This document shows, piece by piece, positions 16,220-35,406 of a DNA stretch of 51,373 bases. The stretch is taken from NCBI GenBank assembly GCA_036507075.1, contig DASXQR010000013.1, positions 1-51,373 of the forward strand, read 5' to 3'. The notes beneath the pieces were generated by a model. That model did no database searches. It saw only the letters and a list, made by a program, of their open reading frames with translations, and was not told the DNA's origin. The stretch's first letter is position 1. Every line of letters starts with the position of its first letter. The translations under genes and the position numbers were made by a program. Source of the stretch: Acidobacteriota bacterium. Lineage in GTDB: Bacteria; Acidobacteriota; UBA6911; JACQSX01.

Positions 16220-17764
16220 TTGAATTTGCTCTCTCGGAAGGCCGGAGGCTTTCCGCACGATAGGCGACAAAGCCGCTCCAGCTTTCCTTCAATTTCTCTC
16301 CCGTTCTTGGCTTTGCTGCTATTCGCTGCCAGCCTGTTGGGCGCCGGCTATGACGCACCACTGGCGAATGCTGTCGAAAAGATGGACAGGGCGAGAATTC
16401 GCGCACTGCTGCAACAGCGCGTCGATGTGAACGCGGCCCAGATCGATGGGATGACGGCGCTCCACTGGGCGGCCTACCAGGATGATCTGGAAACCGCGCA
16501 AATGCTGGTCCGGGCCGGCGCCGGCGTGAAGGCTGCGAACCGCTATGGCGTGACCCCACTGTCGCTGGCCTGCACGAATGGAAGCGGCGCGATGGTCGAG
16601 CTGCTCCTGAATGCCGGCGCAGACCCCAACGTGGCGCTTCGCGGAGGGGAAACCGCTTTGATGACCGCCGCGCGTACGGGCAAGCTCGGGCCCGTGAAGG
16701 CCCTTCTGTCCCGTGGAGCCGACGTTCACAGCAAAGATAGCCAGCACGGACAGACAGCTCTCATGTGGGCGGCCGCGGAAGGTCACGCGGAAGTAGTGGA
16801 AGAACTCATCAAGGCCGGAGCGGATTTTCGCGCCCGTTTGGACTCCGGATTTACGCCTCTGCTGTTTGCCGTGCGCGAAGGCCGGATAGGCGTCGTACGG
16901 GTCTTGCTGAAGGCGGGGGCCGACGTGAATGAGACCGTACAGGCCGGGGCCGGACGGAGGCGCGGCTACGGCGGGCGCCTGCCTCCGGTCGGCGCGAGCG
17001 CGTTGCTCCTGGCTGTCACGAATGCTCATTACGAATTGGCAGCATATCTTCTGGATGCCGGCGCGGATCCGAATGCCGCGCTGCCGGGTTACACGGTCCT
17101 GCATGCCATTACGTCGGTCCGCAAGCCTGGCGTCGGCGATAACGATCCGGCTCCCGAGGGATCGGGAAACATGAGCAGCATCGCGCTTGTCAAAAAGCTT
17201 GCGTCTCTGGGAGCAAACTTGAACGCGAGAATGACGAAGCGGGCGAATCTGGCCAATACACGGTTGAATGAGCTCGGGGCAACACCCTTCCTGCTGGCGG
17301 CCCTCACCGCGGACGCCGAGTTGATGAGGACGCTGGCCGCGTTAGGCGCCGATCCGCTGTTGCCGAATGCAGACCACAGCACGCCTCTGATGGCGGCGGC
17401 CGGACTCGCAACGCGATCCCCTGGCGAGGACGCCGGAACTGAGAGTGAAGTGTTGGAGGCCGTGCAAGCGGCACTGGATCTCGGCGCCGACGTCAATGCT
17501 GTCGACGACAACGGTGAGACCGCCATGCATAGCGCAGCCTACAAGAATCTCCCCAGGGTTGTGCAGCTTCTCGCCGACAAGGGCGCCAGGATCGAAATCT
17601 GGAATCGGAAAAACAAGTACGGATGGACGCCTTTGTTGATCGCCGAGGGTTACCGGCACGGCAACTTCAAGCCATCAGCCGAAACAGTGACCGCGCTTCA
17701 TCGCGTAATGAACGCCGCAGGCGTATCTCCCCCGACAGGACAGAAGTCACGGAATCTGCCCTAG
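16220..17764 (+). CDS. Exported ankyrin-repeat protein (start uncertain)
   Basis: Repeated G.TALHWAA / G.TPL motifs; hydrophobic signal FLALLLFAASLLGA. TTG 16220 after AGGA is preferred because the longer ORF (15923) translates the repeat element. Confidence 0.88.
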   Translation: MNLLSRKAGGFPHDRRQSRSSFPSISLPFLALLLFAASLLGAGYDAPLANAVEKMDRARIRALLQQRVDVNAAQIDGMTALHWAAYQDDLETAQMLVRAGAGVKAANRYGVTPLSLACTNGSGAMVELLLNAGADPNVALRGGETALMTAARTGKLGPVKALLSRGADVHSKDSQHGQTALMWAAAEGHAEVVEELIKAGADFRARLDSGFTPLLFAVREGRIGVVRVLLKAGADVNETVQAGAGRRRGYGGRLPPVGASALLLAVTNAHYELAAYLLDAGADPNAALPGYTVLHAITSVRKPGVGDNDPAPEGSGNMSSIALVKKLASLGANLNARMTKRANLANTRLNELGATPFLLAALTADAELMRTLAALGADPLLPNADHSTPLMAAAGLATRSPGEDAGTESEVLEAVQAALDLGADVNAVDDNGETAMHSAAYKNLPRVVQLLADKGARIEIWNRKNKYGWTPLLIAEGYRHGNFKPSAETVTALHRVMNAAGVSPPTGQKSRNLP

Positions 17765-17868
17765 TAGGCCCCGGGCTTACGCGCCCTTTCTCCCGCAATG
17801 GCCGAATGTTCCAATTTGAGGATTGGGGAGCGGCGGAGAAGTGTCCTTCATGAAAAAGGAGAATTACC

Positions 17869-19044
17869 TCAACGTGGCTCCGGCGCAGACCCGGTTGCTT
17901 CAAGCAGCTCGGGTTCCACCTCGCCGCCGACCGCCTCGAAGGCGTGATGAGGATGGAAGAACTGCTGTGCGATGAAAGTGGGTAACAGGGCACTAGCCAC
18001 CACGACTGCCACCAAAACCGAAAGCTGTGCCTGGTTAATGATGCCTGCTTCGTAGCCAAAGAGTGAACTGATGGTGCCCATCGTCAGCCCCGTGCTCATC
18101 AGCAGCGTCGTGTAGGTCGCTTCTCGCGGCATAAATGCTCTAGTCGCCGGATACACACCGACAAATTTCGTCACAAGCTTTACGCTCAGTAACAGAAGAA
18201 ACAGTCCCATATTGGCCCACAACAGTCGCAGAGAGATATTCATTCCGCCGTTCATGAAAAAGATCGGTGTGATGAAGGCAAAGGAAACAACGCGCAGCTT
18301 GCGCTGGAGCGCCCGGTTAGCGTGGAAAGTGGAAGAGAGGACCAGCCCCAGTACGAATGCCGGAAGGATTGCATGGCTCGCTCCAAGCCGGGCGAAATAC
18401 ATCAGCACCAGCAATAGCAAGAAAAGCAGCTTTATCTCGGGTTCAATGACACGTTCACCATAGCGCCGGAAAAAGAGCGGCACAATCCATGGTACAGCCA
18501 GGATTATGGCGGCGGAGATGAGCGCGAACCAGAGCGTGCGGTTATTCATCGTCGCGAAGAGGACCGACAGCCCGGCGGCCGTGCCGAAATCAGTGACGAA
18601 TGTGCTCGACATGATTATTTTCCCGATCACTGTGTGTGTGAGGCCCGTCTCGATCAGCACCGCGTAAACGACTGCGAGCGAGGTGGTGCTCAGCGCGATG
18701 CCCGCCAGTTTTGAAGCTTCGCTCTGCCACGCCAAGACGTAACGGCAGAAGAGCATCGTACCCGCGAAAGGAGCGGCAAAGGAAAGTGCGCCGATGAAGA
18801 CACTTTCCTTGACTTTCGCTCGCATGACGTGCAGGTCTACTTCGGCGCCGGCCAGAAAGGTAAGCAGAATGCCGCCGAAGCCGGCAATGTAGCGGACCCA
18901 TTCAACCTGCTTCACACCCAGGAAGTTGCCGACAATCACACCCAATGTGATTTCGATAATCGCTGCCGAGATTCCAAATTCGACCGAGATAACGCTGGCA
19001 AGAAAAATACAAGCGGCGAGAACCACCCCTACATACAAATCCAT
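17869..19044 (-). CDS. Cation:proton antiporter (Na+/H+ exchanger family)
   Basis: About 12 TM segments; LTFLAGAEVD, LSTTSLAVV, FVTD, FITPIFF, KLVTKFVG. Confidence 0.9.
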   Translation of the reverse strand: MDLYVGVVLAACIFLASVISVEFGISAAIIEITLGVIVGNFLGVKQVEWVRYIAGFGGILLTFLAGAEVDLHVMRAKVKESVFIGALSFAAPFAGTMLFCRYVLAWQSEASKLAGIALSTTSLAVVYAVLIETGLTHTVIGKIIMSSTFVTDFGTAAGLSVLFATMNNRTLWFALISAAIILAVPWIVPLFFRRYGERVIEPEIKLLFLLLLVLMYFARLGASHAILPAFVLGLVLSSTFHANRALQRKLRVVSFAFITPIFFMNGGMNISLRLLWANMGLFLLLLSVKLVTKFVGVYPATRAFMPREATYTTLLMSTGLTMGTISSLFGYEAGIINQAQLSVLVAVVVASALLPTFIAQQFFHPHHAFEAVGGEVEPELLEATGSAPEPR

Positions 19045-19077
19045 GTTGACTCCCCCTGTTCGTTAGAAAGATTTCAG

Positions 19078-19142
19078 GTAGGAGCCATCAGTCCGCAGGG
19101 ACGGTTTGGGAGCAATGCTGCTCCCCGGCGGACCCCATCACC
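19078..19142 (-). ncRNA. Fluoride (crcB) riboswitch with an inserted hairpin
   Basis: The minus strand reads GGUGAUGGGGUCCGCC-g-GGGAGCAGCAUUGCUCCC-AAACCGUCCCUGCGGACUGAUGGCUCCUAC. This fits the GGYGAUGG...CGCC / AAACCG / CUGAUGRCUCCUAC pattern of fluoride riboswitches. It ends 33 nt before the antiporter ATG. Confidence 0.9.
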
Positions 19143-19151
19143 AAGCAGCGG

Positions 19152-19181
19152 AGTGTATAGGGACGAGTCGGAACATGTCAA
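19152..19181 (-). promoter_or_regulatory. Sigma70 promoter feeding the riboswitch
   Basis: TTGACA (19181-19176), 18 nt, TACACT (19157-19152); the predicted start site falls a few nt before the aptamer. Confidence 0.75.
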
Positions 19182-19364
19182 CCAACGCTTTACATGCATT
19201 AGAAAATTGATTCGGCTGCACATCCGCAGGCAGAGGGAGCATCATGCAAAAAGAACATTGATTGAGCGTCTGGAACGAGTCAGCCCGCCCGAGGCTGAAG
19301 CCAAAGAGGAAAGGCCGCTGAAGCGGCCTAAGGAAGATTAGAATTATCGGTCACCCCGGCTTAA

Positions 19365-19750
19365 CAAGGCGAGAAATGGAGCACCGAACAGGTATGGCAA
19401 AACCGGGATGTTTCCATGTACATGAGCTCCCCGGTACTGGACGGGGATTTCATCTACGGTTTCTCTCACCGCAATAAGGGCCAGTTTTTTGCCTGGACGG
19501 GCGCACCGGCAAGACTCTCTGGCTCAGCGACGGGCGCAACGGCGAAAACGCCGCGCTCGTTCACACCACCAGTGTGCCTTTTTTGCTCACCAATAATGCT
19601 GAACTGATCATCGCCCGCAAGAACCCGAAGGCTTATACGGAAATCCGACGCTACCGCGTGGCCGAGAGCCCAACCTGGGCGCATCCGATAGTGGCAGCCC
19701 GCCAGATCCTGATCAAGGACGCAACCACACTTGCATCGTGGAGTCTGGAC
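19365..19750 (+). pseudogene. PQQ-binding-like/BamB-type beta-propeller, C-terminal fragment with frameshift
   Basis: QGEKWSTEQVWQNRDVSMYMSSPVLDGDFIYGFSHRNKGQFF / CLDGRTGKTLWLSDGRNGENAALV...YRVAESPTWAHPIV...ILIKDATTLASW. One T is missing in the run at about 19485-19490, and there is no 5' part. Confidence 0.8.
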
Positions 19751-19859
19751 AGATGTATGCCGCGGCGACGAATCCGCGCTTGCAGTCTGTTTGCTGATTG
19801 GATAGTCTTTTGGAAATTTTCATCATTTAGGCGCGGCCGCAGGCAAATCCGGGTGTGCG

Positions 19860-21335
19860 ATGGGTTTCTGCAAAACAGGGCGTGGTATGTTTTGTGTTCG
19901 TTTTCGCGTCGTGTGCATGTGGGTCTGTCGCATCATCTGCGGGTGGAGTGGAATTCTTTTGCTCGTGGGCAGTTCGGCTTGCAGCCGCGGTTGCGGGCGG
20001 CAACAGGCGGGGGTTGCCTTTGAGCCGGCGACGGTCGAGGCGTCTATCCAGCGCGATTATGACCAGACGGTCAAGCTTGGGCTGCGGAACAATTCGGACA
20101 AAAATGTGGTCGTCGCGGCCAAGGCGCTGGGGCAGTTTGACGATCTGCCCGCAGATATCGTCGGACCCGGCTCGGTGGATGAACCGGTGCAGGTGCCGCC
20201 GGGCGGAAGACTCGAGCTTCGCCTCGCGATAACGGCGCCTGATGCGACGCGCGAAGCGTACGACATTCCGGTTGAAGCCGCCGGCGCGTCCGCAACGGCA
20301 AGAGTGCGCATCACGAAGATTGACTTCAGGCTCTCCTTCAGGATTATTTCAGAGGATCCTCACACACTGGCCAAAACCATCGAGGTCCGCAACGACGGCA
20401 GTACGCTGGCCGACCTGGCCCTGCACATCGCCGCGCCCAATGAGTCCGAGGTGCGCCTGGAACCGAGCGCAAAACATGCCTATCTGCCCGCAGGCAAGAC
20501 GCTGCAGTTGGTCGCCGCACCGGTCCTTTATCTGGAGTTCCAATCGCTGAAAGCGGTGCTGGAAGGCCGCGCCGGGGGACAAAGCGCGAGGTTTTCGCTT
20601 GATTTCCAGGCGCCGGCAGACAAGCGATTGATCGGCGTGCGTACGGCTACAAAAGAATACAGCTCCGCCTCGGATTGGTACTGCACAAACAAGCCGGACA
20701 CCTGCACCGAGGTACCCGGCCCGCAGGGTAACGGCCTGTCGGGGCAAAACGGAGGGCCGTCACTGGCAAGCGTCGGCAGCGTGTTCTTTCCGTCACCGGG
20801 CATATGCGGGCTGAAACCTCCAACAGGCAAGGAAGATGACTGCCCCCCGATCTGCCGCGACCCGCAGCCCTGTACCGGCGTCGGTTGGGGCGGGACTGGC
20901 AAAAAAGGCTTCCATTCCGAGGAAGAGGCGGCCATCGACGCCCTTAAGACCATAAATCCAATCTCTGTTTGCAACAGCAGGGAGTATTCCGGCTTGATCA
21001 TCCACGACCCGGAAACCGACACGTGGTACTGGACGGTCGAATGCGAGGGCGACAGTGACTGTGTCGCAGCCTCCGATTGCAAACCCAGATTTGAATGCAC
21101 CGGCGCGTGGCACACACACGGCAGCCCTTCACCGGGCGCCGAGGGATTCAGCCGGAAAGACCTGGAAGATAACGGCTGGACTCACAAGGAGTACGTTGCC
21201 ATGCCAACCGGCAAAATCCTGGTTTATCCGATCGTAAAAGATGGAAAACCGAAAACCACTCCCGGATATGGCCCGGCGAGTGAATCGAAGGAGACGGCTC
21301 CGGCGCCGAAGAAGTGTCCCAAGAAGTGCTCTTGA
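19860..21335 (+). CDS. Probable lipoprotein: beta-rich N-terminal domains, DWYCTNKP motif, Cys-rich DUF4329 (JAB-like) C-terminal domain
   Basis: Lipobox-like LLLVGSSAC (alternative ATGs at 19887 and 19917). The C-terminus F.SEEEAAIDALKTINPIS...REYSGLI...WHTHG...FSRKD matches the DUF4329 pattern as I recognise it. Confidence 0.72.
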   Translation: MGFCKTGRGMFCVRFRVVCMWVCRIICGWSGILLLVGSSACSRGCGRQQAGVAFEPATVEASIQRDYDQTVKLGLRNNSDKNVVVAAKALGQFDDLPADIVGPGSVDEPVQVPPGGRLELRLAITAPDATREAYDIPVEAAGASATARVRITKIDFRLSFRIISEDPHTLAKTIEVRNDGSTLADLALHIAAPNESEVRLEPSAKHAYLPAGKTLQLVAAPVLYLEFQSLKAVLEGRAGGQSARFSLDFQAPADKRLIGVRTATKEYSSASDWYCTNKPDTCTEVPGPQGNGLSGQNGGPSLASVGSVFFPSPGICGLKPPTGKEDDCPPICRDPQPCTGVGWGGTGKKGFHSEEEAAIDALKTINPISVCNSREYSGLIIHDPETDTWYWTVECEGDSDCVAASDCKPRFECTGAWHTHGSPSPGAEGFSRKDLEDNGWTHKEYVAMPTGKILVYPIVKDGKPKTTPGYGPASESKETAPAPKKCPKKCS

Positions 21336-21367
21336 TCAGGATCGGGATTGTGATTTTGGGTATCGTC

Positions 21368-21430
21368 CAGTACTTACTTGCAAAAGTTCGCGCATGAAAC
21401 GTTCACCGCAAAGATACGAAGGACACAAAG
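21368..21430 (+). repeat. Third, diverged copy of the AGTACTTAATTCC...CACCACAAAGACACAAAGGACACAAAG element
   Basis: AGTACTTACTTGCAAAAGTTCG...TTCACCGCAAAGATACGAAGGACACAAAG aligns with 28107-28169. Confidence 0.75.
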
Positions 21431-24264
21431 GGAAGACGCTGGCGTGCTGTTTGGCGCTGTGCGGTTTGTTGTGCTTCGGAGTGGAACTTGAAGCGGCTGT
21501 GCAAGCGACGGAAACATCCAGAGAAACAAATTCACTGGAACCGCGGCTCCGCTGGGGGTTGCTGGAAGCGCTGCAGCGGCGCGCAGGCTTCACGCGTTCC
21601 CATCGCGGTCCGTTCGCCGCACCTGCCGAAGGCAATTCCACCGATTCGAGTGCCATGGCGTCCGGCTGGCACGCAGGCGATCGGGTCTATTTCGCCTGGC
21701 ATCAACAGAAGGATGACATCATCTGCGCCGCCTTCGGCCTGCGCGGGGAAGTCCTTGCGGCGCCACGGATCATCGGCAAGGGCCGATGGCCCCGCCTGGC
21801 CGCTGACGGCAAGCGCGTGGCCGCCGCCTGGAGTCACAGCAACGATTTCATCGTCCGGCTCTACGACGGCAAACAGTGGGGCGAACAGATCCCGCTTAAC
21901 GGCCGGGAAGCTTCGCTGGCATTGGCTCCCAATGGTCCGCTCTATGCCGCCACTTCAACAGGGCTGTGGAAACTGGCCGGTAATCACTTCGAGCGCGTCG
22001 AGCAAAAGGCGTACTCTCAGCCTGCCGTTGCCATCGACCCTCAAGGCCGGCCGCAGGTAGCGTGGCAGCGGAACGGACGCATTGTCTATGCGAATGCCGA
22101 AATTGATCCGGGCGAACGGCCTTCACTCACCTTTGCACCTGATGGCACGGTTCACCTCGCTTATTTGTCGAAGGGCGTGCTCGTTCTGCGCTCGGAAAAG
22201 CAGGGCAGCCAGCCTTCCCGCGAAACCATTCAGGCCAAGAATCCATCCTGGCCGGCGGTGGCGATGGGAACAGACGGCGTGCGACTGACGTACCTCGGTG
22301 GCGCTGAACATGGCCCTCAGGCGCTATGGCTTGTCCGCCGGGCTGAGAAGGAGCCGGTACTTCTGCCCTCGCTGGCCGGCAATGTGACCGACGCCTGGCT
22401 GATGCTCAACTTTGGATTGCGGTATCGCCGTTCCAGCTACCGGCCCCATGATGTGTCAATCAGCGTCAATGACGTGCCGATCCATCGATTCGAAAAGACT
22501 GTTCCCGACGGCCGCTTCCTCTTCCGCTTGAAGCCCTATCAGGTATTCACTTCTTCCGGAGGTCCGGCGCCAAATCGCGTTGCGCTCTCCAGCCGGCATA
22601 TGAATGGCGGTCATTATGCCACCAACAGCGATTACCGGATAATCGTGCGGACGTCCTGGAACGAGCGCTACGCGTTTGGTTCCAGCGAAGAAGAGGTCCT
22701 GCGCTCAACGCAAAGCGCCCGGCTCAATCACAACCAGCCGGACCTGGCGGTGCTGGCCAACGGCCTTGACCTTCCGGTCGAAGCGCCCAAACCAGGCAGA
22801 ATTGAATTGGCCGTCACCATCGCCAACCTTGGCGAAGCCCCTTCCCGGCCGGCTCGAGTCGCCATGCTTGACAATCAGAAGATGCTGGCAGAAGCGCCGC
22901 TGCCATCTCTCAGGCCGGACGAACAGCAGACCGTGACGCTGCCTCTCGACTATGACGGGCGGCTGGGGAGCGTCACCTTCCGGATTCATCAGGACCCGCC
23001 CGATTTCGACCCGCGGGATGACGTGCTTACCCTGATGCTCTGGGGAACGGAAGCCAGGGCGATGGCGGCGGGGACGGGCGTCGGTTCCGGCGTCGCGGGG
23101 GCAGGTGCAGCGGGCGGAAAAGGGGGAAGTCTGGTTGTGTCAGGCCTGGGGCAGTATTACTACTCGGTATTTGACTCAGCCGGGACCAGAAAACTGGTGG
23201 ATGCAAAGACCAACGGAGAAGTCGAGTTGCCGCCCGGCAGCTACAGGGTTTCGCTGAATAATTCATCGCAGGTGACCAACATCCAGGCCGGCCGCAAAAC
23301 GGTGGTGCCGGCCGGGAGCGTGTTGATTTCGGGAACCGGACAGTATTACTACTCGGTGCTGGACGCAGCCGGAACGAGAAAGCTGGCGGATGCAAAGACC
23401 AACGGCGAGATCGAATTGCTGCCGGGTACCTACAGAGTATCGCTTAACAATTCTTCCCAGGAGACCAGCATCCAGGCAGGTCGCAAAACCGTGGTGCCGG
23501 CGGGAAGGGTGACGGTTTCGGGAACGGGACAATATTACTACTCGATGCTGGACGCAGCCGGAACCAGAAAGCTGGCGGATGCAAAAACCAACGAAGAGAT
23601 CGAATTGCTGCCTGGCAGCTACACAGTGTCGCTGAATAACTCTTCCCAAACCGGCAGCGTCCAGGCGGAGCGTAAAACGGTCGTGCAGGCTGGAAGCGTG
23701 GTGGTTTCGGGAACCGGACAATATTACTACTCGGTGCTGGACGCAGCCGGGACTAAAAAGCTGGCGGATACCAAGACCAACGGAGAGATCGAATTGCTGC
23801 CGGGAAGCTACAGGGTATCGCTGAATAATTCCTCCCAGGAGACCAGCATCCAGGCGGGTCGCAAAACGGTGGTGCCGGCGGGAAGCGTCGCGGTTTCGGG
23901 AACCGGACAATACTACTACTCGGTGCTGGACGCAGCCGGGACTAAAAAGCTGGCGGATACGAAGACCAACGGAGAGATCGAATTGCTGCCGGGGAGCTAC
24001 AGAGTCTCGCTGAATACTACGTCGCAGGCGACCAGCGTCCAGGCGGGGCGCAAAACCGTGGTGCCGGCCGGGAGCGTAGTGGTTTCGGGAACCGGGCAAA
24101 ATTATTACTCGGTGCATGACGCAGCCGGGACCAAAAGGCTGGCGGATGCAAAGACCAACCAGGAGATCGAATTGCTGCCCGGCAGCTACATCGTCAAAGT
24201 CAACAATCGCCAATTCCCTGCACAGATTCGAGCCGGGCAAAAAACGGCTATCAGCCCTCAATAA
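21394..24264 (+). CDS. Large exported multidomain protein: propeller-like region, HDV...HMNGGHY domain, CARDB-like domain, Gly linker, six 63-aa repeats
   Basis: Blade-like motifs (WPRLAADG, QPAVAIDPQGRPQVAW, RPSLTFAPDGTVHLAY); PDLAV...VTIANLGEAPS...LPSLRPDEQQTVTL (CARDB-like). ATG 21394 is preferred over 21241, which overlaps the upstream gene. Confidence 0.8.
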   Translation: MKRSPQRYEGHKGKTLACCLALCGLLCFGVELEAAVQATETSRETNSLEPRLRWGLLEALQRRAGFTRSHRGPFAAPAEGNSTDSSAMASGWHAGDRVYFAWHQQKDDIICAAFGLRGEVLAAPRIIGKGRWPRLAADGKRVAAAWSHSNDFIVRLYDGKQWGEQIPLNGREASLALAPNGPLYAATSTGLWKLAGNHFERVEQKAYSQPAVAIDPQGRPQVAWQRNGRIVYANAEIDPGERPSLTFAPDGTVHLAYLSKGVLVLRSEKQGSQPSRETIQAKNPSWPAVAMGTDGVRLTYLGGAEHGPQALWLVRRAEKEPVLLPSLAGNVTDAWLMLNFGLRYRRSSYRPHDVSISVNDVPIHRFEKTVPDGRFLFRLKPYQVFTSSGGPAPNRVALSSRHMNGGHYATNSDYRIIVRTSWNERYAFGSSEEEVLRSTQSARLNHNQPDLAVLANGLDLPVEAPKPGRIELAVTIANLGEAPSRPARVAMLDNQKMLAEAPLPSLRPDEQQTVTLPLDYDGRLGSVTFRIHQDPPDFDPRDDVLTLMLWGTEARAMAAGTGVGSGVAGAGAAGGKGGSLVVSGLGQYYYSVFDSAGTRKLVDAKTNGEVELPPGSYRVSLNNSSQVTNIQAGRKTVVPAGSVLISGTGQYYYSVLDAAGTRKLADAKTNGEIELLPGTYRVSLNNSSQETSIQAGRKTVVPAGRVTVSGTGQYYYSMLDAAGTRKLADAKTNEEIELLPGSYTVSLNNSSQTGSVQAERKTVVQAGSVVVSGTGQYYYSVLDAAGTKKLADTKTNGEIELLPGSYRVSLNNSSQETSIQAGRKTVVPAGSVAVSGTGQYYYSVLDAAGTKKLADTKTNGEIELLPGSYRVSLNTTSQATSVQAGRKTVVPAGSVVVSGTGQNYYSVHDAAGTKRLADAKTNQEIELLPGSYIVKVNNRQFPAQIRAGQKTAISPQ
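23125..24258 (+). repeat. Six intragenic tandem repeats of 189 nt (63 aa)
   Basis: Unit GSVVVSGTGQYYYSVLDAAGTKKLADxKTNGEIELLPGSYRVSLNNSSQxTSIQAGRKTVVPA; units start at 23125, 23314 and so on. Confidence 0.95.
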
Positions 24265-24373: not shown

Positions 24374-24769
24374 TCAATGCAGGCGTGTGACGCCCGGCAG
24401 CGCATCGAAGCCCTCATCGAACGTCATCACTTGATGGATTCCCTCCTGCTCCATGACAGCGGCATGCAGGGCGTCACGCGCCGAGAGTCGTCGCTTGCCC
24501 AGCACGATGGTCTTGGCACGCTCCACACACTCGGCGGTCACTGGAAATACCTCGTCAATCACTCCCAGAAGGGCATCAAAGGCGGGTTGGATCGCATCGC
24601 GGCGGTCAATGGCGACATAGCGGTGGAGTATCTCCTGCAGAACCTCGGCATCGGTCACCAGTCGCTCGGCGGCGGCAATGGCGCTCTCCAGAAGCCGCTG
24701 CGCGTCGGCCTTGTGCGGATGCGCCGCGCCCACAAGATACATGGGGATGTTCGAGTCCACAAAGATCAT
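24374..24769 (-). CDS. vapC: VapC-family PIN-domain toxin
   Basis: [27 protein letters not shown] and MTFDEGFD supply the PIN acidic residues. Confidence 0.92.
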
Positions 24770-24776
24770 GGCGAAG

Positions 24777-25034
24777 TTATCTCGGCGCCGAGCCGAGATA
24801 TCCTCGCTCGATCTCCCCCAGCATTTGATCGATATCGGCCGTCGGGAACGCGTTTCGTGCCGCGGCTCGCACTACTTCAAGTTTCTTCCTGACATCCCGG
24901 CCAGGCTCGGACCGGCGCGCCGCTCGAAGGACTTGGCGGACCCACTCGGCCGTCGTCATCCCGTGCCGGTGAGCAATCTTCTGGATTTCGCCCAATTCCG
25001 CCTCGTCCAAAAGAACCTGCAGTCGCTTACTCAT
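24777..25034 (-). CDS. Ribbon-helix-helix antitoxin
   Basis: [14 protein letters not shown]...[11 protein letters not shown]; directly upstream of the PIN toxin. Confidence 0.88.
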
Positions 25035-25418: not shown

Positions 25419-25910
25419 GTGTCGATATTCGGAAAGACTCTTGCCGAATACGCAAGATTCGTTCGTGTTGGAATCATCCTGATATTGCTGATGGGCGTGG
25501 CGCGGTTCATCGTGGGAGTGTCAGGAGTCCCCTATGAAAAGGCAACGCATTTCGTCAGCATCACCTTACTGACGCTGCTTCTCGCTCTGGTGTATGGTCA
25601 CAAGGCGGCTGCTTCAAAGTTTGGAAGCTACCGCCAGTTATTGCCGGCCACAGCCCTGCTGGCCGTGACAATGTATGGCTTCATTATCCTTGCCATCCTG
25701 GTCGAAAGTCTCTGGGGAATTCACGGATATTTCCATAGCGAAACGACAAGAGCGGTCGCTTCCCGCTTGCCTTCCGGAATTCTCCGGGCTCCCGCGCAGA
25801 TGAGCGTTGCCTTCCACATAACAGGTCAGCTCATCGCAATGCCGATCACCACCGCTATTCTATGGGGCATAGCCAGCCTCGGCTTCCGATTTTCCAGACG
25901 GCATAATTGA
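25419..25910 (+). CDS. Hypothetical membrane protein (about 4 TM)
   Basis: Hydrophobic segments; GTG 25419 after GAGGTG (ORF-track start 25407). Confidence 0.75.
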   Translation: MSIFGKTLAEYARFVRVGIILILLMGVARFIVGVSGVPYEKATHFVSITLLTLLLALVYGHKAAASKFGSYRQLLPATALLAVTMYGFIILAILVESLWGIHGYFHSETTRAVASRLPSGILRAPAQMSVAFHITGQLIAMPITTAILWGIASLGFRFSRRHN

Positions 25911-25914
25911 CATC

Positions 25915-25951
25915 TGACCACTTGACTAGTCATTTGGTCCACATCTATACT
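25915..25951 (+). promoter_or_regulatory. TA promoter with palindromic operator
   Basis: TTGACT (25922-25927), 18 nt, TATACT (25946-25951), 6 nt, ATG 25958. Palindrome TGACCA-CT-TGACTAGTCA-TT-TGGTCC covers the -35. Confidence 0.78.
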
Positions 25952-25957
25952 TTCCGC

Positions 25958-26224
25958 ATGGCGAAGCGACCGGGAGCGAAAAAACATCAGGGACTCGAAG
26001 TCTCCATCAGCGATTTCAAAGCCCGCTGCCTCGAGTTCATTAATCGCGCCTATTCAGAAGGGCGCGAGTACGTCATCACCAAGCGTGGAGAGCCGATCGC
26101 GCGACTGGGGCCGCTGAGCGGGACGGGGCGGTCGGCGCGCGGCAGTTGGAAAGGGTTGATCCAAATCCGCGGCGACATTGTTCGGACTGACTGGACCGAA
26201 GAATTCGAGGTGACAAAAGAGTGA
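25958..26224 (+). CDS. Phd/YefM-family antitoxin
   Basis: VSISDFKARCLEFI...EYVITKRGEPIARL. Confidence 0.9.
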   Translation: MAKRPGAKKHQGLEVSISDFKARCLEFINRAYSEGREYVITKRGEPIARLGPLSGTGRSARGSWKGLIQIRGDIVRTDWTEEFEVTKE

Positions 26225-26619
26225 CCTATCTGCTCGATACCCACGTGGTGATCTGGTGGTGGACGGATGCCCCTGAACTCCCCGCCAGATTCGCTGTACT
26301 TCTCGATCGTTTGGCGGCAGCCTCCGAGATGATCGGAATCAGCACGATCAGCCTTTGGGAAATCGCCATGCTGGTGGAGCGCCGGCGCCTCGAGCTGTTT
26401 GCTTCAGTGGATACGTTTCTGGCGGAGATCGAAAGCCACGCTCATGTTCGCATGCTGCCCATCACTGCCTGCGTTGCCGCAGAAAGCACGCGAATGGGGC
26501 CATCGTACCCGCGTGATCCTGTGGATCGGATCATAGGAGCCACCGCTCGGTGCCACCACCTGCGTTTGGTCACTGCCGATCAGGCTATTCGTGATTCCGG
26601 CGCTGTGGCATTTGCTTGA
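26221..26619 (+). CDS. vapC: VapC-family PIN-domain toxin
   Basis: YLLDTHVVIWW, STISLWEIA, DPVDRIIGATA, LVTAD; GTGA overlap with the antitoxin. Confidence 0.92.
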   Translation: MTYLLDTHVVIWWWTDAPELPARFAVLLDRLAAASEMIGISTISLWEIAMLVERRRLELFASVDTFLAEIESHAHVRMLPITACVAAESTRMGPSYPRDPVDRIIGATARCHHLRLVTADQAIRDSGAVAFA

Positions 26620-26902: not shown

Positions 26903-28108
26903 ATGCCTCCCACAAACAGCTACAACGCGCACAAGCCGCCGTCGCCCGGCGGTGAACGGATCGGTGGCCCTTCCGAGTGGATTCATCAATGTGTCGGCCG
27001 TGTGGAAGCCTTCTGGCAGCGCGTAACAGAAGGCTTGGAGCTGCAGGAACTGTGGAGGCGTTTCAAGGCGGAGGCGCATGCCAGCTATGCGTTGTACTCC
27101 AAAGAGGTGGATTGGGAATCCTTCAAGAAGGAGTCTCGTGCAAGACGGCTGTTAAAGATCGGACGCGCTCTGTTCTGGGCGATGATCTTGAAGCTGTCAC
27201 CGGCTCGACGTGTTTTTCTCCTTTTGGGACTCGCGCTGCTGGCCCTGGCACTGGCCGGAGGCTGGTCGTCTCGCGGGTCTTCAGGACCTGCGATCCTTCT
27301 CTCGGCTGGATCGCTGTTGCTGCTGTTGGCCCTCGAACTTGCCGATCGCGTCACGATGAAGCGGGACCTGGAAATCGCCCGCGAGATCCAGCATTGGCTC
27401 GTGCCCGAAGTTCCTCCCGAGGCGCCGGGTGTCGATATTGCTTTTGCAACGCGTCCAGCCAATACAGTTGCCGGCGATTACTATGATGCCTTTCTTCGCA
27501 CTGCCGACACGGGCACCTCCACGCCTGGCCGCCTGCTGCTGGCGGTGGCCGATGTGGCCGGCAAAGGCGTCCCTGCCGCGTTGCTTATGGCTACGTTCCA
27601 GGCCAGTCTGCACACTCTTGCCGGAGCGCCGACATCGCTGCTCGATCTGGTAGCCGGGCTGAATCGCTACGCTTGCGCGCATAGTCTGGGCGGGCAGCGC
27701 TTTACCACGGCCTTCCTTGCGGAATTGGATCCGGTCACCCGCACGCTCAGTTACATCAACGCCGGTCACAACGCGCCTGTTCTGCGCCGGGTGTCCGGCG
27801 GAATTGAGCGGCTGGAAGCGGGCGGGTTGCCGCTGGGAATCAGGTCACAGACGCGCTACGACTCGGGAACGACGACACTCGATCGTGGCGATCTGCTGGT
27901 GATTTTTACCGACGGCCTGGTCGAGGCCGAAAGCGAGAGTGGAGCTGAATATGGCGATCTGCGGCTGTTTGACGTATTGAAAGAAATACCCGATGGCAGC
28001 GCCTCACAACAGTTGCAACGCCTCATGGATTCGGTGGACAGCTTCGTTGGCCATGCACGGCAGCATGATGATATTACCTGTCTGATCTTGCTGGTGGAAT
28101 CCGGTTAG
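26903..28108 (+). CDS. Membrane-anchored PP2C/SpoIIE (RsbU-like) phosphatase
   Basis: DLEIAREIQ, VAGDYYD, VADVAGKG, YINAGH, IFTDGLVEA, QHDDIT; two TM helices. ATG 26903 is used because the longer ORF translates the repeat. Confidence 0.92.
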   Translation: MPPTNSYNAHKPPSPGGERIGGPSEWIHQCVGRVEAFWQRVTEGLELQELWRRFKAEAHASYALYSKEVDWESFKKESRARRLLKIGRALFWAMILKLSPARRVFLLLGLALLALALAGGWSSRGSSGPAILLSAGSLLLLLALELADRVTMKRDLEIAREIQHWLVPEVPPEAPGVDIAFATRPANTVAGDYYDAFLRTADTGTSTPGRLLLAVADVAGKGVPAALLMATFQASLHTLAGAPTSLLDLVAGLNRYACAHSLGGQRFTTAFLAELDPVTRTLSYINAGHNAPVLRRVSGGIERLEAGGLPLGIRSQTRYDSGTTTLDRGDLLVIFTDGLVEAESESGAEYGDLRLFDVLKEIPDGSASQQLQRLMDSVDSFVGHARQHDDITCLILLVESG

Positions 28109-28180
28109 TACTTAATTCCAAAAATCCGGGTAAGATTTCTTTCACCACAAAGACACAAAGGACACAAAGTAGTGCGCTGG
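28106..28180 (+). repeat. About 75-bp dispersed element beginning at a TAG stop codon (copy 1)
   Basis: TAGTACTTAATTCCAAAAATCCGGG...TTCACCACAAAGACACAAAGGACACAAAGTA matches the reverse complement of 35332-35406. Confidence 0.88.
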
Positions 28181-35055: not shown

Positions 35056-35331
35056 CAGCATTCCGCACAAAGTATTCAAAGAAGCAAGAATTTGGCCAGC
35101 AGCGGCTCCGTCTCTTAAGTTCTTGCGACAAAAGATTTATTTGGCGATTGGCGGAAGTACTTAGAGTGCCTCGGCTGTTCGAATCCGAGATTACGTCGTA
35201 CCGATTTCGAACAATCACATAAAATGACTCATAAGCGGATTAAGATCTGGCGCACTGGAACTGGCTCGAGAGAATGAAACTCGAGAAAGCTTGAGCAGAA
35301 TCCCGAATCCCGAATGCGGAACCGGACTCTG

Positions 35332-35406
35332 CCAGCACCTTACTTTGTGTCCTTTGTGTCTTTGTGGTGAAAAGATTCCTGCTCGGATTTCTGGAATTAA
35401 GTTCTA
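35332..35406 (-). repeat. About 75-bp dispersed element beginning at a TAG stop codon (copy 2)
   Basis: Minus strand reads TAGAACTTAATTCCAGAAATCCGAG...TTCACCACAAAGACACAAAGGACACAAAGTA. Confidence 0.88.

Follow-up and report, generated by a model that had tools for sequence, protein, structure and literature searches.

A modular, probable split-clasp system, apparently undescribed, in an Acidobacteriota bacterium: a predicted JAB-fold enzyme chain and its socket partner

Two consecutive genes of an Acidobacteriota bacterium (assembly GCA_036507075.1) raise the question of why a toxin-type enzyme domain should sit at the end of an apparently exported chain next to a large, repeat-bearing neighbor, and of whether the two products work as one system. 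The genes lie at 19860..24264 of contig DASXQR010000013.1, of which positions 1 to 51,373, here called the window, were analyzed. A first-pass annotation made from the letters alone had proposed a two-gene surface effector system, in which a lipoprotein with a DUF4329/JAB-like, swappable tip is displayed, held or targeted by its partner.

Gene 1 (19860..21335, + strand, 491 aa) encodes the anchor chain, made up of scaffold, latch and JAB cassette; a start at 19887 is also possible, the database copy P0003 beginning at residue 10. The features reported earlier for this frame (DWYCTNKP, a Gly/Pro linker and the E...HTH...S..D series) are all present in the ORF. Its hydrophobic leader, a single hydrophobic segment (19887..19982, +), ends in the non-canonical, lipobox-like LLVGSSAC41. 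The leader speaks only in part for the designation as a lipoprotein: the Ser at -3 is non-canonical, the lipobox is not conserved in relatives, and most of these carry a plain N-terminal hydrophobic anchor in its place. The leader hints weakly at lipidation of gene 1, and lipoprotein nature is no family trait. The conserved scaffold that follows (19992..20669, +), 46-67% identical to close relatives, probably forms two Ig-like beta domains, judging from weak Ig-type hits in relatives; in the gene 1 protein itself it matched nothing in Pfam, NCBIfam or PDB sequences. It leads into the latch (20673..20723, +), which comprises WYCTNKP and the next predicted strand and contains Cys275 and a second cysteine, Cys282. 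The DWYCTNKP motif occupies residues 272-279, ahead of the Gly/Pro linker, and Cys275 is invariant (31/31 aligned gene-1-type chains).

The DUF4329/Tox-JAB-2 cassette (20925..21221, +) had been recognized by its residue pattern, and profile search bears this out: residues 356-454 match DUF4329 (Pfam PF14220) with E 1.9e-12 and 47.6 bits against a curated cut-off of 28.6. The Tox-JAB-2 residues E375, H418-T-H420, S431 and D434 are all found here and in 4 fused relatives; the signature as tabulated in the accessible text of PMC3482391 is E, H[ST]H, S, D. A JAB-like fold is likewise predicted by Atlas models, in which the gene 1 protein compares with DUF4329 clusters at TM 0.78-0.81 and gives feature hits to Prok-JAB and DUF4329 at 0.93-0.94, with predicted models on both sides of each comparison. 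Eleven Cys lie within the 197 residues after the latch. In the portions available to us of PMC3482391 and PMC10469887, nuclease or peptidase activity of DUF4329/Tox-JAB-2 is predicted only, and the latter source presents DUF4329 solely as the predicted RNase tip of RHS effectors. An extracytoplasmic enzyme fits the missing immunity genes and the Cys-rich tip at least as well as does an "effector". The genome, which is 96% complete, holds one DUF4329, one scaffold and one socket, and no orphan DUF4329 cassette was found in it.

Gene 2 had been given a start at 21241; a start at 21394 is more likely, yielding a socket chain of 956 aa (21394..24264, +) with its own hydrophobic, signal-peptide-like leader. 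A conserved N-terminal segment and a predicted beta-propeller (21547..22368, +) come first, the segment being conserved in relatives and the fold inferred; the propeller noted earlier has no Pfam hit in gene 2, and it is in distant relatives that BNR/BNR_2 hits at the corresponding site speak for it. The socket (22369..22728, +), a predicted beta-sandwich, includes His352, His402 and His407 within the motifs YRPHDV (349-354) and HMNGGHY (402-408), and its profile matched nothing among PDB sequences. Behind it lie a CARDB (Ig-like) domain (22735..22998, +; Pfam match at residues 448-535, 28.7 bits vs a cut-off of 22.7) and a variable tail of six 63-aa beta-rich repeats with a 189-bp period (23125..24261, +), so that the HDV...HMNGGHY region, the CARDB-like domain and the six repeats of the earlier description are all found. 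At the tail position, relatives of gene 2 carry TSP_C, AhpC/TSA, DUF6531-RHS or other modules in place of the repeats, which shows tail swapping behind the CARDB domain; the tail of gene 2 likely has a binding role.

What joins the two chains became apparent from the socket. A profile of the HMNGGHY region matched 400 representatives at E <= 0.001 among 1.84 billion, and we examined the best 150 of the 400. Distant giant surface proteins carry WYCTNxP 11-37 residues ahead of the HMNGGHY region, both window parts align in order on one contiguous distant relative, and the window latch aligns to the start of the intact domain with a score that 0/2000 shuffles reached. These alignments show the WYCTNxP latch and the HMNGGHY socket to be parts of one predicted domain, which we call the clasp. 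The earlier suggestion that the two motifs occur together in single giant proteins is thus confirmed in relatives, and the partner, previously taken as a separate holder, is better read as the other half of the clasp. Among 180 socket domains, a motif search placed the latch directly next to the socket in 20, ahead of it with an insert between them in 43 and behind it in 28; in the remaining 89, partner-type proteins and fragments among them, the search found no latch in the chain itself. These counts use loosened motif patterns that miss a few chains, e.g., P0183 and P0196. The clasp domain accordingly occurs in contiguous, interrupted, circularly permuted and two-gene forms. Because the contiguous forms and three chains with the latch at the extreme C-terminus have no cassette behind it, the clasp also exists apart from enzyme display.

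The three socket His are conserved in 169/178 (94%), 155/180 (86%) and 154/180 (86%) of the domains, and at least one of them is missing in 16/43 insert-type chains. No match to the clasp domain exceeded the cut-off in Pfam, NCBIfam or PDB sequences; for the intact domain the Atlas offered weak leads to DUF7383 (13% of one cluster, 0.90) and BPA_C (0.88), and the socket was not found in viral contigs or plasmids. About 20 large scaffold-socket proteins (P0109, P0115, P0119, P0121 and about 15 similar ones) have all three His with no latch found; some are truncated, and others may take their latch from another gene. The giant proteins P0101 and P0106 each contain two tandem scaffold-latch-socket units.

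A contact between latch and socket is suggested by paired residue changes. A Pro after the latch Cys goes together with an aromatic at socket column 27, 77 or 80 in 9/9 chains vs 0/83 others, a count that overstates independence, the Pro/aromatic chains forming few related groups; columns 27 and 77 alone account for 8/9, column 80 having been added after the exception P0215 was seen. The pairing spans contiguous, inserted and permuted single-chain forms, a tenth case occurs at locus L037, and we read it as a probable compensating change. In the related chains P0055 and P0080 the latch motif has disappeared along with all three His. No signal came from mutual information between latch and socket columns, in a set that had no power (83 chains, effective number 43). 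As a check on whether the second latch Cys stands in for a His, His loss was compared with that Cys (9/22 vs 14/70, p 0.09), and in the exported close group Cys275-Cys282 pairing could be an alternative.

What follows the latch is far from constant. Searching with scaffold residues 45-290 returned 35 proteins between 270 and 860 aa and 24 that exceed this length, and the cassette sample comprised 62 close rows (with a few locus/protein duplicates), 58 of which have >40 residues after the motif. These 58 chains fall into 15 helical, 9 with a pre-toxin-like helix and varied ends, 8 NlpC/P60, 8 of a second helical type, 5 DUF4329, 4 HExxH (motif assigned by eye) and 9 singles, several being truncated; the two largest helical classes matched no family and no plasmid. 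At least six unrelated cassettes thus follow WYCTNxP on scaffolds that are 46-67% identical, and scaffold pairs that are 72-79% identical can have unalignable cassettes. The extreme case is P0033 and P0053, strongly supported neighbors with 79% scaffold identity and unalignable cassettes, one of them split and the other fused. On a scaffold tree of 54 rows (8 fragments or duplicates excluded; much of the backbone unresolved) we counted 17 cassette-class changes, against a minimum of 5 and a shuffle mean of 26.8, so that the classes are still clustered. Cassette swapping is real as judged from these alignments, and the proposal of a swappable tip on a conserved scaffold held up when the parts behind WYCTN[KR]P were tabulated, several of them being of toxin type. 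Conflict-type cargo in relatives includes DUF4329, NlpC/P60, M23 and PT-TG. The identified cargo of the exported group consists mainly of hydrolase folds (JAB, NlpC/P60, M23, HExxH) and is cysteine-rich, which would suit both an extracytoplasmic site of action and the missing immunity genes. In a Riflebacteria record (L009/P0037), a teneurin TTR-like domain is joined to a scaffold fragment.

Whether two genes are the primary arrangement is a separate matter. All close long relatives (19/19) are fusions of gene 1 and gene 2 in the order cassette, propeller, HMNGGHY region, CARDB. DUF4329 is an internal insert in 4 of them. The toxin-type part, C-terminal in gene 1 of the window, is internal in 19/19 of these proteins, and a two-gene system with a C-terminal tip can no longer be regarded as the primary form, fusions being as common. 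Fusion tails vary independently (repeats, TSP_C, AhpC/TSA, DUF6531-RHS). The co-occurrence of the two genes is borne out: of 23 scaffold loci fetched, 16 were informative, that is, had the whole scaffold and enough downstream DNA, and in 16/16 the partner region comes next, adjacent or fused; the other 7 reached a contig edge or matched the scaffold only in part. Intact among the informative loci are 4 fusions and 5 splits; of the others, 3 are near-identical splits whose partner is interrupted by a stop, and 4 are fusions disrupted by frameshift or stop, meaning that a stop or frameshift breaks 7/16 (4 distinct lesions). Named records of scaffold loci belong to KSB1, Planctomycetota, Pseudomonadota and Acidobacteriota, and the family was present in 3/401, 10/401 and 1/151 genomes of the sets surveyed, with one copy each in most positives.

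The apparent splits at L006/L012, L014, L018/L020 and L026 were taken for broken fusions and left out of the true splits. Otherwise intact genes carry in-frame stops at L018:973, L020:1439, L016:11233, L017:5275 and L019:8506. The TGA of L018/L020 falls at the position of the latch's second Cys; selenocysteine was considered and rejected, the downstream RNA folding no better than shuffles (z 0.32), and the codon is taken as a nonsense change. A double AhpC/TSA redoxin is met repeatedly, either encoded upstream (L013:1048-2037, L016:7137-8126, L022:262-1236) or fused to the partner as its tail (P0043, P0083, P0084, P0086), hinting at redox handling of the latch Cys. The partner region of L003, a KSB1 genome record, is identical to that of P0056, a protein with the label Nitrososphaera, and this points to wrong binning of one of the two records.

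A hydrophobic leader of its own is present on 13 of 17 separate partners and absent from the other 4; 10 of the 17 are known as proteins without their locus, and there "separate" is judged from the protein start. The partner tree requires 7 split/fused changes, only 2 of them forced by strong branches, and a clean, independent split at the same point occurs at L034 in a distant Planctomycetota-group genome. The split between gene 1 and gene 2 looks real and recurrent. An assembly error is not evident at this site: a contig of run X1, possibly this DNA's source, covers 19500-21431 gap-free, and the same two chains occur in a slightly different database copy (P0003/P0062). Run X3 extends only 24 letters past the gene 1 stop, too few to count as a bridge, and two short RNA contigs (run X7) were not counted as evidence of expression.

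The junction itself (21369..21438) is a dispersed, imperfect genomic repeat that contains the likely ATG of gene 2; it has ~112 blastn hits in the genome, and its core pattern is present in 147 genomic copies vs 0 in 3 shuffles. Further copies lie near 28107-28169 and 35331-35405 of the window. Upstream of gene 1 is a truncated, frameshifted gene remnant (19352-19750) that resembles DNA on contig C201 and of which the piece tested had no Pfam hit. Downstream there are two toxin-antitoxin-like pairs, PIN with an RHH-like gene at 24374-25034 (-) and Phd-like with PIN at 25907-26619 (+). With the remnant and these pairs as flanks, the locus suggests a variable island. The first-pass annotation was right that no small immunity ORF follows, there being no small same-strand gene after gene 2 in the window, where the convergent PIN/RHH pair comes next. 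It was also right about the missing RHS core and VgrG/PAAR: PAAR and VgrG were unmatched in the genome, whose RHS-repeat genes lie on other contigs (G000:C167, about 51000-54100; C225, about 17700-19600). PADLOC defence models matched 0/11 proteins.

A side branch of the family departs from this layout. The pre-toxin-like cassette group is a single clade on the scaffold tree (98/91); a second latch Cys is absent from it, and its cassettes contain 0-3 Cys. Several members begin with two N-terminal helices followed by basic residues, and leaderless partners stand beside two-helix anchors at L007 and L008; with the positive-inside rule as general background, this suggests that the two-helix group is a cytoplasm-facing version. 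Both loci also encode homologous small membrane-anchored proteins (L007:14161-14715 and L008:11749-12297; 34% identity, E 1e-14), possibly a third subunit, which have no Pfam match and are absent from the other loci of the set and from this genome. The L008 gene was rejected as a cognate immunity gene, its homologue at L007 adjoining a different tip, and inspection by eye of the other loci revealed no cognate immunity genes. The link of the two-helix cassettes to PT-TG consists of weak plasmid hits only (E 8e-7 to 8e-4), and a home-made PT-TG profile had no hit in this group's cassette. In the permuted group some 400-1700 residues separate the socket from the latch behind it, and three of these chains have the latch at their extreme C-terminal end. 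Behind the permuted latch, PT-TG is above cut-off in 6/21 scanned chains, the region beyond it being mostly conserved and not polymorphic, and P0166 carries there a complete DUF6531-RHS-PT-HINT toxin.

Taken together, we think it fairly probable that two exported chains reassemble one domain outside the cytoplasm, which would give a membrane-anchored complex with a predicted JAB-fold metal hydrolase beside a repeat tail. Gene 1 would give the first two beta-strands with Cys275, and gene 2 the rest with its three His. That the latch strands complete the socket beta-sandwich, so that the window chains form a heterodimer, is the part of this proposal we regard as very probable from sequence comparison. 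We lean slightly towards Cys275 and the three His binding a shared metal ion such as zinc, which would lock the chains. The anchor chain would hold the enzyme, the partner would contribute propeller, CARDB domain and tail, and the loop after the latch would be tolerant enough for evolution to insert, swap or cut off enzyme cassettes there. The job is most likely hydrolytic and probably antagonistic, with the predicted enzyme presented at the cell surface against non-self targets; antagonism is the preferred purpose in view of patchy spread, frequent decay and the kind of cargo. A cassette so rich in cysteine would reach its folded state only once exported, and for that reason the producer would not require an immunity protein in its cytoplasm.

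A more far-reaching reading, which we consider possible and advance only tentatively, would make of this a widespread, undescribed, metal-locked clasp, a two-strand Cys peptide and a three-His socket that may be adjacent, 800 residues apart, reversed or on separate proteins. It would serve as a triggerable release point mounting interchangeable toxins, up to a whole RHS-Hint, on the cell surface without needle or immunity gene, and a sub-lineage would apparently have turned cytoplasm-facing and gained a third, membrane-bound partner. Release as the primary purpose, through Cys275/Thr276 and a socket His making a cut or through a force- or redox-driven pull-out that frees or unmasks the cassette on target contact, seems unlikely to us. 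The cargo does start directly behind the latch whatever the part order, PT-TG, PT-HINT and RHS cargo are polymorphic-toxin hallmarks, and Thr loss accompanies the socket aromatic replacements, as expected for inactive variants; the recurring AhpC/TSA redoxin, fused or upstream, would suit a redox trigger, and in-built releasing peptidases are described in the accessible text of PMC3482391. The same residues are kept, however, in contiguous and cargo-less forms, two chains with Asn after the Cys retain all three His, and neither an immunity gene nor PAAR or VgrG was found in this genome, and an 11-Cys cassette fits poorly with the cytoplasmic nuclease role proposed for Tox-JAB-2. If true, a releasable or self-cleaving latch would be a new route of toxin delivery.

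Less probable still is a non-antagonistic modular surface platform for adhesion, matrix or wall remodelling or nutrient access, with a structural, cut-tolerant clasp and toxin-like domains used as handy hydrolases. Such a platform would account for the cassette-less giant Ig, cadherin, PKD or TSP3 proteins among the distant relatives, for tails resembling binding or redox modules, for the single copy in most positive genomes, for the lack of an orphan DUF4329 here and for the cognate immunity gene not having been seen; yet patchy spread, with cassettes often swapped and genes often decayed, is more in keeping with conflict genes, and a housekeeping role is not obvious for pre-toxin and RHS-Hint cargo. 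Very improbable, finally, is a fusion gene broken not long ago, when the dispersed repeat inserted and left decaying halves that no longer cooperate: the ~112-147-copy repeat at the junction does hold the likely start codon, four other intact DUF4329 members are fused, broken relatives are common and a frameshifted remnant lies directly upstream, but both frames are intact with every latch, socket and JAB residue present, the gene 2 leader has its hydrophobic core outside the repeat, with nothing corresponding to that core in fused linkers, and splits with unrelated leaders recur, at least 2 of the 7 partner-tree changes being forced by strong branches.

The preferred reading, a surface complex held together by a split clasp, recalls donor-strand complementation in chaperone-usher pili and the strand-retaining autoproteolysis of GAIN/ZU5-type domains, in which another chain or segment supplies the strand that completes a beta-sandwich. 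Unlike these cases, there is no evident usher or polymer here, two strands with a conserved Cys and three His would be involved, and contiguous, permuted and split forms coexist. With polymorphic toxin systems bearing Tox-JAB-2/DUF4329 tips, as described in the available text of PMC3482391, the family shares signal-peptide export, a conserved body and variable toxin-type cargo (Tox-JAB-2 and NlpC/P60; PT-TG, Hint and RHS in relatives); it differs in having here no RHS core, adjacent immunity gene or orphan cassette, in cargo that is often internal and in a second variable position, the partner tail. Because the immunity and orphan-cassette tests fail, we do not file it under those systems, despite its toxin-display-like working.

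Three further systems were compared from the text accessible to us. Myxobacterial SitBAI (PMC5562445), compared by description, likewise has a lipoprotein-like chain, a variable C-terminal enzyme and an accessory protein with a type I signal, whereas the partner here is downstream and would be the other part of a shared domain, no SitI-like gene is present in the window, and the lipobox is not family-conserved. The Gram-positive S8-PTS (PMC9424270) resembles the pair in its signal peptide, conserved beta domain, variable toxin and dedicated partner gene, and differs in its S8 peptidase partner and immunity genes, neither of which occurs here. Thermococcales VARTIG proteins (PMC8416519), the function of which is not known, are secreted Ig/CARDB proteins shuffled between lineages in a PTS-like organization; their variable part is an Ig domain and not an enzyme behind a Cys latch, and their motifs differ. 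A literature search, which covered few subscription papers, brought up no account of either the motifs or the chassis; such proteins could be listed in supplementary files, notably those of PMC3482391. The modular system is real and apparently undescribed.

Its small soluble DUF4329 domain from gene 1 offers material for the question of what Tox-JAB-2 cuts, and a natural peptide/socket pair that survives insertion, permutation and fission could serve as a metal-switchable protein coupling tool. For the biology of the family, the system means that uncultured bacteria of soil and groundwater have a further, so far unannotated chassis for polymorphic enzyme cargo, one that breaks two rules by which such systems are searched for, namely that the toxin comes last and that its immunity gene is next door.
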